Shown: positions 47,620-50,131 of the stretch, one piece after another
Numbering within the stretch: position 1 is the stretch's first letter
How the letters are laid out: every line of letters begins with the position of its first letter
IMG/VR virus record: IMGVR_UViG_3300005611_000035
Coordinates: 1 to 55,717 of that record
Reading direction: 5' to 3' (one strand)
DNA from: a virus
Lineage: Duplodnaviria; Caudoviricetes
Length of the DNA stretch: 55,717 bases
Notes under the pieces: generated by a model
Database searches by the model: none
The model's input: the letters and a program-made list of their open reading frames with translations, nothing else
What the model was told of the DNA's origin: nothing
Position numbers and translations under genes: made by a program

Positions 47620-48381
47620 CTAGTTGTTAGACTTGAATACGTTAACATAACCAGGCAGAACCTGTAAGTTCCAAGGCACATGTAACCCACAGATGTTCTC
47701 ACCTCTTAGTGGTACTATATGATCTACGTGATAGTCTTCACCAGTAATAGACCTACAGTCACGCATTAGTTCATACGTATCTGCTATCTGTTGTTTATGC
47801 TCTTTGCTTAACCATTTAGGTGTAGCTTGTCTGTTGCGGCGATCACGTAATGCGTTATTGCGTTTCTTACGGTGCCTACCTTCAGGTGTGTTTTCATAGT
47901 GTCTATTGTTAGTACGCCTACAGGTTTTACATTTAGCGTAGGGGACTTTGTAAGTACTACCGTCTTTACGCTTACGGTTACGCATGTGGTACTGGGATAA
48001 AGGCTTCTCTTCTTTACAGGTACTACATGTTTTAACACCTGTTGCTAAAGCAGCCTCACGTTCTTGTTCTGCTTTCTTGCGCCATTCTTCTTGTATCTTT
48101 TCTATAGCACCGCTTTCTATATACTCTGCATACCAAGCTTCCCACTTTGCTTTGCCAGCTTCCTGCCTCTCTTCGGGAGAAAGTTTTGGTTTACGTACTC
48201 TATTTAGCCATTTCTCCCGTGTTAAGGCTATTTTAGAGCGATTCTTAGAAGAATATTCTCTTATGTACTCTCTTCTACAAGCCTTACATCTACCTGTAGG
48301 TACTTTATCGCCGTTAGCTTTAGTACGCTTATCAAACTTGTCTAACTCTTTTGTTTCATTACATACTGTGCAGCTTTTCAT
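47620..48381 (-). CDS. HNH homing endonuclease with two Cys4 modules
   Basis: AAGGAGG RBS before ATG 48381; ATPKWL..HVDHIVPLRG..CGLHVPWNL. Confidence 0.88.
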   Translation of the reverse strand: MKSCTVCNETKELDKFDKRTKANGDKVPTGRCKACRREYIREYSSKNRSKIALTREKWLNRVRKPKLSPEERQEAGKAKWEAWYAEYIESGAIEKIQEEWRKKAEQEREAALATGVKTCSTCKEEKPLSQYHMRNRKRKDGSTYKVPYAKCKTCRRTNNRHYENTPEGRHRKKRNNALRDRRNRQATPKWLSKEHKQQIADTYELMRDCRSITGEDYHVDHIVPLRGENICGLHVPWNLQVLPGYVNVFKSNN

Positions 48382-48402
48382 GTTTTCCTCCTTGGTGTGC
48401 AT

Positions 48403-48433
48403 ATAGTTATACTCATGTGTATACATATGTCAA
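48403..48433 (-). promoter_or_regulatory. Promoter TTGACA-N16-TATAACTAT of the HNH gene
   Basis: Matches the recurrent architecture. Confidence 0.65.
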
Positions 48434-48707
48434 TAGGGGGGTGTGACACTTTAAAAAAGCTCGTGTGTGTATTTGTACATATACGTATTACGTACCCACC
48501 CCGTATGGCCCCCGTGCCGCATCGACAGATATAGCTAAGCTGCTGAAAACATTGAGCTTTCTACTTCTAGTTGTGTCCCGGATTTAAATACAATTTTATT
48601 CTAGCTAGTAAATATACTGCTATGTTGTTGTTTTTATTATGTTTTACTAGTGATATGGCTTCACTAGTTTTGTATATATGTAAAAAAAGCATATCCCTAT
48701 TTTGGCT

Positions 48708-48801
48708 TGTGATCACAAACAAAAGAGACGTGCACGAAACACATTTATGTGATCACAAAATAGTAATACTCTTTTTTGTCTACTCATTATTTGTGATCAC
48801 A
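48708..48801. repeat. Three copies of the palindrome TGTGATCACA
   Basis: At 48708, 48748 and 48792 in the non-coding divergence region. Confidence 0.85.
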
Positions 48802-48966
48802 TTTCCAGTACAACCAATGCGATACCTTAGCACAACCTGAAGTAGAGCTTATATAGTAATACTGTGCATGTTGTGCTTTTAAAGCTAGACTTATCTTACT
48901 CACTACTAAAAACATTAATGAAAACAATAGCTTATAAAAAAGTTGCATAAAAAGTAAAAAAAGTGC

Positions 48967-48996
48967 TTGCAATATTCAAAACAATCTGTGCATAGT
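48967..48996 (+). promoter_or_regulatory. Early sigma70-like promoter TTGCAA-N18-CATAGT with an A-rich upstream tract
   Basis: A-tracts upstream, TGTG before the -10; first promoter of the plus arm. Confidence 0.5.
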
Positions 48997-49002
48997 TATT
49001 AC

Positions 49003-49450
49003 ATCGAAAGCGACAAGAAACAAACGCACAAGATAAGACCTAGCAAAGTTTCAGCGTCCTAAGCGATCAGCACTCTTGAAAGAGACTTGCACAAACTAAA
49101 AACTGAAAGACTAAACGCAACACAAAGGAGACACACGAACCGGACACACGATAGATACTGACACACCTTGTATCGACGTTATTTGACATAGCAGCCCTGG
49201 CTGACTGGGTGAGGTGCGCCCGGCTGCAACCTATACTGTGACGGTATGACAGTATAATCCTTGCTAGGATAAGGTATAGACTTAAGCGTACCCTTGGTGG
49301 CAAACACATCTGACAAATGTGCTACCTACCTTGACCGATAGGTGGCAAACGGCGTGACGTGACATCATATAGATGTAGTCTCACAATGGGCGTCCAAGGC
49401 TGAAAGGGTGCGTGTGATCTAAAACGTAGCACGATTAATGCAAAAAACTT
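49003..49450 (+). ncRNA. Putative large structured non-coding RNA or early leader
   Basis: No plus-strand ORF of 60 aa or more in the ORF track; at least 7 helices including long-range pairs. Confidence 0.5.
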
Positions 49451-49510
49451 TCTTGACAGATAGGCGCTATATGTGCCTATTCTCAAGACAGTTAAACGAG
49501 AGGTGAGACA

Positions 49511-50131
49511 ATGCAACAAGTACACATTAGCAAAATGACGGGTAAGCTTGACGGGTTCAAAGCCATCAGCACCAACACAATCACCAATGATTACTGCAAC
49601 AAGCAACACATCAAAGGCAAAGCCACGGGTGACAATATATGTGGTGACTGTTACAGCCACGCTATGCTCAATACGTACCGCAAGAATATGCAAGCTGCGT
49701 TGCAACGTAATAGCGATTTATTGTCCAGTAGACCATTGGAACCGCAAGAGATACCAAGAGTGACGGACGCAATGTTCCGCTTCAATGCACACGGTGAGCT
49801 TATCAATATGCAACACCTAGAAAATCTCATGGCAATAGTGCAAGACAATCCTTGGTGTACCTTTGCCTTATGGACTAAGCGAGTTGACCTAGTGTTCCGT
49901 TGGCTACGCAACAATGACAAGCCAACAAACTTAAACCTGATATACTCAAACCCTAAGAAAGGACACATCATGTCCAAGCCACCAAAGGGATTTGACAAGA
50001 CGTTTAACAATGTACAAGAGGATGAATTTGTTGACCGACAAAACTGTACAGGACAGAAATGCAAAGATTGTCGCTTGTGTTATACTTTCAATGACACAAG
50101 AACCATTGTTGAAAAAGTTAAAAAGTATTAA
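49511..50131 (+). CDS. Gp88-like Cys-rich protein
   Basis: C..C..CY, FRFNAHGEL, FALWTKR, C..KCKDCRLCY. Confidence 0.65.
   Translation: MQQVHISKMTGKLDGFKAISTNTITNDYCNKQHIKGKATGDNICGDCYSHAMLNTYRKNMQAALQRNSDLLSSRPLEPQEIPRVTDAMFRFNAHGELINMQHLENLMAIVQDNPWCTFALWTKRVDLVFRWLRNNDKPTNLNLIYSNPKKGHIMSKPPKGFDKTFNNVQEDEFVDRQNCTGQKCKDCRLCYTFNDTRTIVEKVKKY

Follow-up and report, generated by a model that had tools for sequence, protein, structure and literature searches.

A probable structured leader RNA ahead of the first early gene of a putative HMO-2011-type phage

The IMG/VR record IMGVR_UViG_3300005611_000035 is a complete virus of 55,717 bases, analysed here at its full length (the window, positions 1 to 55,717), and it raises the question of what occupies the space between its early promoter and the first gene of its plus-strand arm. 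The plus-strand arm extends from 49511, over the record ends, to 12422, the minus-strand arm spans 12667–48426, and an intergenic region of 1085 nucleotides (nt; 48427–49510) lies between them. A first-pass annotation, made from the letters alone, had described positions 49003–49450 as a densely structured non-coding RNA with a possible switch. Comparison with relatives indicates that a non-coding leader of about 450–500 nt (approximately 49001–49495), in which many unpaired bases are invariant, is very probably a real and conserved structured RNA of the plus strand. Hence, the proposal of a novel phage RNA heading the early arm survives as a new, conserved, structured RNA, though the thermodynamic basis on which it was put forward does not. 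What the leader does is a more tentative matter; the reading that we favour is an action in cis on the early transcript. The DNA polymerase shares 87.4 % identity with that of Roseobacter phage CRP-2, 86.6 % with that of CRP-603 and 57.5 % with that of Puniceispirillum phage HMO-2011, identities that place the virus, as judged from this protein, among the HMO-2011-type phages.

Relatives of the leader and covariation within it

The product of the first early gene matches the Pfam family GP88 (PF17338, E 8.9e-10), and a search for GP88-like proteins gave 80 viral loci with 64–96 % identity. Upstream DNA is common only to the window and two of these 80 loci (L003 and L004), and the two closest loci (96 %) carry unrelated upstream sequence with a small open reading frame (ORF). 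When the window was aligned with L003 and L004, near-identical islands were found within a poorly conserved stretch, and pattern scans seeded from these islands gave additional viral contigs. A segment of approximately 105 nt (49330–49436 in the window), here called motif C, recurs in the pattern-scan contigs with flanks that are otherwise unrelated, and many of the contigs that carry it are also alike upstream of it. A pattern scan of metagenomes contributed 73 further loci, 13 of them chance matches; in the viral scans, the loci judged by eye to be due to chance numbered 4 of 10, about 9 of 24 and about 15 of 30. Two structure-blind MAFFT alignments were used, A2 with 14 sequences, on which the structure of motif C was drawn by eye, and A4 with 25 full leaders, together with a covariance model of motif C (R1, 108 positions) that was run on 91 sources.

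Motif C provides the clearest evidence for a folded RNA. On A2, 92.6 % of cells are paired, both partners have changed in 16 of 27 pairs, and covariation scores 0.435, compared to 0.035–0.099 when the partners are slid by 1–3 columns. The model found 78 matches in the 91 sources, 55 of them distinct, and in these 55 sequences 95.7 % of cells are paired, against 79.3 % in shuffles (none of 500 reached the observed value) and 31–54 % with slid partners; 17 of 26 pairs have changed on both sides, in 209 cells. Because the R1 alignment is fitted to the model and biased toward it, the A2 result and RNAalifold serve as a guard, and RNAalifold, unaided, recovers P1, P2 and P3, with P1b in another register. 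P1b is the least certain helix of motif C because its bases are nearly invariant. The terminal stem of P2, proposed at first pass as ACATC 49362 with GATGT 49372, is strongly upheld, with all five pairs changed on both sides and 99.2 % pairing in the 55 sequences. Between the covarying helices lie highly conserved internal loops, GUCCAUGGCUGAA.GGGU and ACCRAUAGG.GGC; the invariant one is GUCCAAGGCUGAAAG, which reads GUCCAUGGCUGAA.G in A2. A subclass made up of L129, L138, L142, L167 and their kin has the apical part of P2 replaced by another hairpin.

G-U pairs make up about 176 of the 1345 cells in motif C, compared to about 58 that are non-standard (both summed from the pairing table). As a G-U pair becomes an A-C mismatch on the opposite strand, the plus strand is the folded strand, in agreement with the earlier remark that G-U pairs in several stems favour it.

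Upstream of motif C, the modules follow a fixed order in the 25 full leaders, namely A, B1, B2, B3, C0 and then motif C, with the terminal hairpin D after it (Table 1). When helices A1, A2, B1, B2 and B3 were considered together on A4, 85.2 % of cells were paired, against 31–46 % with partners slid, and changes were compensatory in 25 of 32 pairs. Two pairings proposed from the single sequence are borne out by covariation here: GCAGCC 49191 with GGCTGC 49222, enclosing GGGTG/CGCCC, which is domain B2 (all six pairs of the outer helix have changed on both sides, with 88.9 % pairing, as have 2 of 4 in the inner helix), and TATACTGT 49232 with ACAGTATA 49249, which is hairpin B3. The minimum free energy (MFE) structure of 49186–49260 includes the outer helix of B2 and pairs the inner part differently. 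B1 is the weakest of the helices, with 57.5 % of cells paired on the MAFFT alignment, where gaps intervene, and with stem variants that, by eye, compensate each other (GGUAU/GUACC, GGUC/GACC, GGAU/AUCC and GGCC/GGCC). Taken with the 55 distinct motif C sequences, the 25 full leaders support the structure on covariation, a check that the first-pass annotation had itself suggested.

Table 1. Features of the leader and of its immediate surroundings in the window
Feature	Position	Strand	Details
Early promoter	48967–48996	+	-35 TTGCAA 48967–72, spacer 18 nt, -10 CATAGT 48991–96
Module A	49000–49095	+	Invariant 5' end UACAUCGAAAGCGACAAG (49000–17), A1, invariant CAGCGUCCUAAGCGAUCAGC (49053–72), A2
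Helix A1	49017–21 with 49048–52	+	Encloses variable insert; 4/5 pairs changed on both sides, 91.6 % paired (A4)
Hairpin A2	49074–76 with 49083–85	+	2/3 pairs changed on both sides (A4)
Purine-rich, Shine-Dalgarno-like stretch	49125–49135	+	AAGGAGACACA; no start codon downstream
Hairpin B1	49154–49174	+	GAUAC 49154–58 with GUAUC 49170–74
Conserved unpaired segment	49176–49190	+	ACGUUAUUUGACAUA; almost invariant in 25 full leaders
Domain B2	49191–49227	+	Outer 49191–96 with 49222–27; inner GGGUG 49207–11 with CGCCC 49217–21
Hairpin B3	49232–49256	+	UAUACUGU with ACAGUAUA; 8/8 pairs changed on both sides, 89–93 % paired (A4)
Lineage-specific insertion	49257–49295	+	Local hairpin AUCCU 49257–61 with AGGAU 49266–70; contains TTGCTAGG
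Hairpin C0	49296–49326	+	Outer GGUGG 49296–300 with CUACC 49322–26; inner CACAU 49305–09 with AUGUG 49317–21
Motif C	49330–49436	+	107 nt, three helices; P1, P1b, P2, P3; R1 score 92.9 bits, E 6.5e-18
Motif C P1	49334–36 with 49407–09	+	CACC with GGUG in A2
Motif C P1b	49341–44 with 49391–94	+	GGCG with CGUC in A2
Motif C P2	49350–57 with 49381–88; 49362–66 with 49372–76	+	Long, irregular; ends in 5-bp stem with invariant AUAUA loop
Motif C P3	49411–15 with 49429–33	+	Loop GGCAAAUGCAAAG
Terminal hairpin D	49446–49493	+	Three helical segments, about 19 bp in all, separated by small internal loops; TTGACA (49453–58) in 5' arm
Ribosome-binding site and first early gene	49497–50131	+	Ribosome-binding site GAGGUGAG; ORF 49511–50131, 206 aa

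In module A, the invariant 18-mer at the 5' end occurs once in the window. The MFE structure also pairs AUCG 49003–06 with CGAU 49064–67, and GAC with GUC; these bases are invariant and so offer no covariation to assess. In relatives the Shine-Dalgarno-like stretch is conserved as GAGGTGA.ACA, and it is similar to the true ribosome-binding site (RBS) region at 49497–49510. The pentamer TGACA was counted by eye six times in the leader of approximately 510 nt (49159, 49184, 49247, 49311, 49360 and 49454); several copies lie in loops or conserved unpaired segments, and only some are kept in relatives.

Though all the strings quoted in the first-pass annotation lie where it placed them, three of its pairings did not survive comparison with the relatives. 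The long-range pair of CCTAGCAA 49039 and TTGCTAGG 49261 has its 3' arm in an insertion that, among the leaders compared, is found only in the window, L086, L208 and L219; L219 has TTGCTAGG without CCTAGCAA, and the local hairpin AUCCU/AGGAU competes with this pair. Both GCGTACCCT/AGGGTGCGT and CCTTGG/CCAAGG have 3' arms (49394–49413) that fall in the conserved loop and the P1 strand of motif C and are paired elsewhere. CCUUGG/CCAAGG was also considered as a tertiary pair and rejected, as most relatives have CUUGG facing CCAUGG, which mismatch at the centre, and C0 takes up the GG of CUUGG (by eye). The repeated GGTGGCAAAC with its intervening GCTACC had been read as a pair of mutually exclusive folds. 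One of these, GGTGGC 49296 with GCTACC 49321, corresponds to hairpin C0, recognised by eye; its outer stem is present in the MFE structure, and relatives have compensating variants, GGUUGG/CUAACC, UUGUAU/AUACAA or CUACAC/GUGUAG at this position and, in L219, CACG/CGUG. The switch itself fell away, as the second copy reads GGCGGC in relatives and is, by eye, not complementary to the 3' strands of C0.

The leader appears to be non-coding on either strand. No ORF of 32 amino acids (aa) or more lies on the plus strand between 48967 and 49511, in line with the earlier statement that there is no credible one; the longest have 31, 24 and 22 aa and none is in frame in relatives. Two candidate genes were rejected, the 22-aa ORF at 49438–49506 because its frame is broken in relatives, and the minus-strand ORF at 49067–49309 because of a 4-nt indel in relatives. 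A 4-nt indel lies inside B2 in L212 and L163. When the intergenic region was compared by tblastx, all six frames matched equally, and the conservation is therefore at the nucleotide level. The lack of a conserved ORF, the indel in B2 and the tblastx result together argue against coding.

Nor does the leader belong to a family that Rfam recognises. No model of Rfam 15 (4227 models) matched the whole window at the gathering score or 48900–49600 at E <= 10, as the first-pass annotation had expected of a novel RNA, and seven relatives searched at E <= 1 gave only two weak mir-274 matches (24 bits, against a gathering score of 56). These two (E about 0.2; L167:1201–1319 and L129:1262–1361) lie, by their coordinates, outside the leader, upstream of its promoter and on the opposite strand, and are probably a conserved hairpin of the divergent region rather than a microRNA. 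No transfer RNA or transfer-messenger RNA was found. A full-text search of the literature found no paper that pairs HMO-2011 with noncoding RNA, and in term matches against the main papers on HMO-2011-type phages 'intergenic' occurred solely for spacers in host ribosomal DNA, with no match to 'promoter', 'noncoding', 'non-coding' or 'riboswitch'.

The probable promoter, the predicted start of the transcript and the terminal hairpin

The early promoter is probably of the host sigma-70 type. In 23 distinct upstream contexts with divergent flanks, its position retains a -35-like hexamer (TTGCAA, TTTACA, TTGAGT, TTGAAT and others), a spacer of 17–18 nt and a -10-like hexamer, which is CATAGT in 13 of the 23. 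The -10-like hexamer ends 4–5 nt before ACATCG in 22 of these contexts by script and in the remaining one (L118) by eye. Sequence invariance begins approximately 5 nt downstream of the -10, at TACATCGAAAGCGACAAG (49000–17), and the transcript most likely starts at about 49001–49003. That conservation sets in at the predicted transcript start is the best evidence for 48967–96 as the promoter of the leader RNA, and the promoter and the RNA start at 49003 proposed at first pass agree with this conserved placement.

This arrangement also bears on whether the conserved element works as DNA, for example as a replication origin, a template for a primer RNA, or a packaging or entry signal at the point where the arms diverge. 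The cumulative GC skew has its minimum at approximately 49,000, and the leader adjoins an AT-rich region with three TGTGATCACA palindromes, as such an element might. However, the change in skew coincides with the switch in gene orientation, the conservation begins at promoter +1, and the frequent G-U pairs mean that the pairing works on the plus strand only, and we consider a DNA-level role very unlikely.

Hairpin D, which ends the leader, has a folding energy of -22.8 kcal/mol (z -5.96; none of 200 shuffles as good). A hairpin of -8 kcal/mol or below follows motif C within 10–25 nt in 51 of 58 distinct contexts, and is itself followed by an RBS and a start codon. The hairpins in this position are of at least three sequence types, and covariation within D was seen by eye at one pair (GAUAGGC/GCCUAUU versus GGUAGGC/GCCUACU). 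The TTGACA in the 5' arm of D was considered as a second promoter and judged improbable: its spacer to TATTCT would be 19 nt, the promoter scan did not list it, it is paired inside D, and it is missing from the other D types. Several types have a U-rich tail after D, such as CGCCCUUUUUAUGG in L085 and GCCGUUUUGGUG in L188, and these are terminator-like, though D need not be a terminator. Its length and internal loops match the size of an RNase III substrate (an imperfect RNA duplex of approximately 20 bp), and the other D types are of similar length.

These properties raise the question of whether the leader merely processes or stabilises the early mRNA, with D cut by RNase III or RNase E, or shielding the 5' end as a stem, and with the other modules as ballast, or as a spacer that times transcription-coupled DNA entry. 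D is the sole thermodynamically outstanding element (z -5.96) and adjoins the RBS in nearly all contexts, and T7, whose early leader has an RNase III site, offers a precedent; this would nevertheless leave unexplained what lies upstream of D, at least eight covarying helices together with unpaired segments that are invariant, and on balance it is an improbable account of the whole leader.

The position of D could equally suit a riboswitch-like sensor, with motif C or the whole leader gating the early genes through D in response to a host metabolite or signal. Highly conserved internal loops between covarying helices, and a hairpin within 10–25 nt of motif C with an RBS behind it, are what such a device might have, and yet no alternative pairing with D was found beyond chance. 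When the 5' segment of motif C was paired with the 100 nt downstream, the duplex energies had a mean z of -0.23 relative to dinucleotide shuffles and only 1 of 58 contexts fell below -2. Pairing of the motif C segment AUAGGCGGCA with the 3' arm of D was likewise rejected, being no better than chance. The GCUACC switch is not kept in relatives, the downstream genes are mutually unrelated and show no consistent link to one pathway, apical P2 is replaced wholesale in L129, L138, L142 and L167, and Rfam has no match. A riboswitch is thus unlikely, and among the functions that had been proposed (decoy, anti-defence RNA, antitermination element and riboswitch-like leader) riboswitch-like switching is the least favoured.

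Possible action in cis or in trans

Our favoured reading, which we hold tentatively and without expecting it to be more than one of several contenders, is that the leader acts in cis on the early transcript in the manner of the put RNAs of phage HK022. The leader would be what host RNA polymerase transcribes first, forming the 5' portion of the early transcript, and once folded it would act in cis on that transcript, the nascent RNA engaging the transcribing polymerase and leading it to read through hairpin D and later stop signals; D might in addition be where the leader ends or is processed. In keeping with this, the leader always lies upstream of a start codon on the same strand, and a stable hairpin, terminator-like in some lineages, stands between it and the genes. 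The first genes downstream vary (GP88-like, MTYKLIGVG..., MKLYILSDGWP... and others) and are mostly of unassigned function. In many relatives (L003:2549–2774, L004, L085, L119 and L126), a gene of approximately 72 aa (MKLYILSDGWPAYL...) lies between hairpin D and the next gene; the window does without it, and the GP88-like gene directly follows the same RBS. A T7-type RNA polymerase (PF00940) gave no match in the record, a search in which the control genomes gave no signal either.

The put RNAs, of approximately 70 nt and two stem-loops, bring about processive antitermination. They too are cis-linked structured RNAs behind an early promoter used by host polymerase and before stop signals and early genes, the nature of the next gene being immaterial, and the leader has the corresponding location, downstream of the early promoter and upstream of the first terminator or genes, in the same orientation. 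Action of this kind requires no alternative pairing, which agrees with the negative result for motif C and D. The leader is not known to resemble put in sequence or structure.

Several results weigh against a conserved, folded leader that acts in this way. The plus strand of 49003–49450 has an MFE of -107.6 kcal/mol and its dinucleotide shuffles have a mean of -107.6 (z 0.00), with 48 of 100 shuffles equal or better, and the description of the region as densely structured by folding failed on this check. The minus strand gave z -1.05, motif C +0.86, module A 0.01 and B2–B3 -1.67, D being the only outstanding module. We reject folding energy as a criterion here and retain the RNA itself. Only 8 of the 12 promoter positions agree with the consensus, and the site fell below the cut-off of the consensus scan, which left it unlisted; a contig from an RNA library also extends 45 nt or more beyond the proposed start on its upstream side. 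With about 450–500 nt and at least 10 helices, the leader is far larger than the put RNAs. D in the window has no U in the next 9 nt, unlike a hairpin with a U-tract, and the terminator scan found nothing there; over all contexts, at least 4 U within 9 nt follow 16 of the 51 stable hairpins and at least 5 U follow 8 of the 51.

The distribution of the leader is also against it. R1 finds motif C in 3 of 81 sources, namely the window plus two among the 80 loci that have its first gene; some of these loci include little upstream sequence. In CRP-2, the closest cultured relative, the best R1 score over the 1.2-kb intergenic region and the first 2.5 kb is 6.3 bits (E 2.2); a TTGACA-type promoter lies approximately 75 nt before the first gene in this region, and the leader is missing. 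No match at E <= 1 was obtained when the L119 leader was compared by blastn to 50,697 phage records. Hence, the leader is, as judged from its occurrence, accessory and dispensable. Positions 48400–49520 of the window, compared by blastn to the same 50,697 records, matched CRP-2 only, outside the leader.

An accessory element recalls instead an RNA product, in effect an accessory first early gene, that is cut or ended at D and acts in trans, whether as a scaffold, as a ribozyme or by titrating a host defence or RNA-binding protein (decoy or sponge). Its spread is mosaic, relatives with the same first gene having small ORFs (70–120 aa) or a short untranslated region (UTR) in its place, and its large size, fixed domain order and many invariant unpaired bases are those of RNAs with complex folds. 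D, at approximately 19 bp with internal loops, has the size of an RNase III substrate. True R1 matches all lie in IMG/VR viral or metagenome contigs, several of the metagenome record names mentioning marine or Tara, and among 185,579 representative prokaryote genomes there were 11 pattern loci, none confirmed by R1, though a single exact pattern was used and absence is not proven; with none of these 11 being true, the leader is known only from viral and marine contigs. Set against this, the window has neither a terminator of its own nor an evident separate promoter for the early genes, which makes the leader physically a 5' UTR, a candidate target is missing, and the RNA data consist of contigs and reveal no discrete species. 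An action in trans is possible, and only slightly less likely than the put-like action in cis.

Contigs assembled from metatranscriptomes, in four runs from four studies, cover parts of 48984–49497 at 95–99 % likeness, or a relative's version of it, and little of the flanks. One RNA-library contig of 449 nt, with a depth of 181, joins B2 to D of a relative; depths are mostly 2–7. As the runs were picked using this very stretch, the contigs give neither ends nor strand and carry-over of DNA is possible, these data are at most a hint that the leader can occur in RNA preparations.

Beyond both the put-like action in cis and a simple RNA product, the leader may represent a new class of large, multi-domain RNA, the first product of infection by HMO-2011-type phages, that works as RNA itself (as a ribozyme, as a decoy or sponge that disarms a host protein of defence or RNA binding, or by reprogramming the polymerase in a far more elaborate way than put) and is passed from phage to phage, an accessory RNA gene that takes the place of small early proteins. 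We regard this as a speculative possibility, more likely wrong than right.

Neighbouring features, known systems and significance

Other features of the divergent region lie outside the leader. Three copies of the palindrome TTGTGATCACA occur in an AT-rich stretch at 48707–48801, 40 and 44 nt apart; one copy is found in the CRP-2 intergenic region, and L085 and L088 match the stretch in the window. From its sequence, this array looks like an operator or an origin-type binding site. An island at 48449–48514, just upstream of the first minus-strand gene, is 78–92 % identical in L005, L007, L012 and L081 and lies inside the CRP-2 match (69 %). One library of RNA depleted of ribosomal RNA gave contigs on 48454–48494 with depths of 54 and 139, and the island may be a leader or small RNA of the minus-strand arm. 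The first minus-strand gene itself (47620–48426, minus strand) encodes a protein of 268 aa, rich in cysteine and in lysine and arginine, with a C-terminal end in which an HNH-like pattern (HVDHIVPL...N) can be made out by eye; no Pfam family matched at E <= 0.01.

Compared to known systems, the leader shares with the T7 early leader, which has an RNase III site upstream of gene 0.3, a span of hundreds of non-coding bases from host-type promoters to the first early gene, and an end in a long, imperfect hairpin that adjoins the RBS; no set of covarying domains is known in the T7 leader. The phi29 pRNA, another podovirus product, is likewise a non-coding RNA transcribed from the first early promoter, where the early region begins. 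It is essential for packaging, while the leader is missing from close relatives, and Rfam, which holds pRNA, gave no match at E <= 10. With GOLLD, ROOL and HEARO, the leader shares a large size, many covarying helices, conserved unpaired bases, an association with phages and a function that is obscure or was recently found; it differs in having no Rfam match and in its fixed place, 5' of an early operon in lytic marine podoviruses. An account of such large, phage-linked orphan structured RNAs (GOLLD, ROOL and HEARO/omega RNA) is available (10.1101/2024.12.08.627333). We rate the leader as a new RNA family and, by its position, as a far larger and more elaborate variant of the structured leaders found behind phage early promoters, though it could be something categorically new.

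The HMO-2011-type phages are described in one published account as a dominant and widely distributed marine viral group (PMC9038755). A conserved RNA of about 500 nt and at least 10 helices that is transcribed first from the early promoter would join a small number of large structured RNAs whose genomic role in lytic phages is defined, and R1 is a ready covariance model for the annotation of marine viromes. The leader would be a candidate for a new RNA-based mechanism, either of polymerase control or of a decoy directed at the host, and a testable entry to the start of infection by HMO-2011-type phages in slow-growing ocean bacteria.

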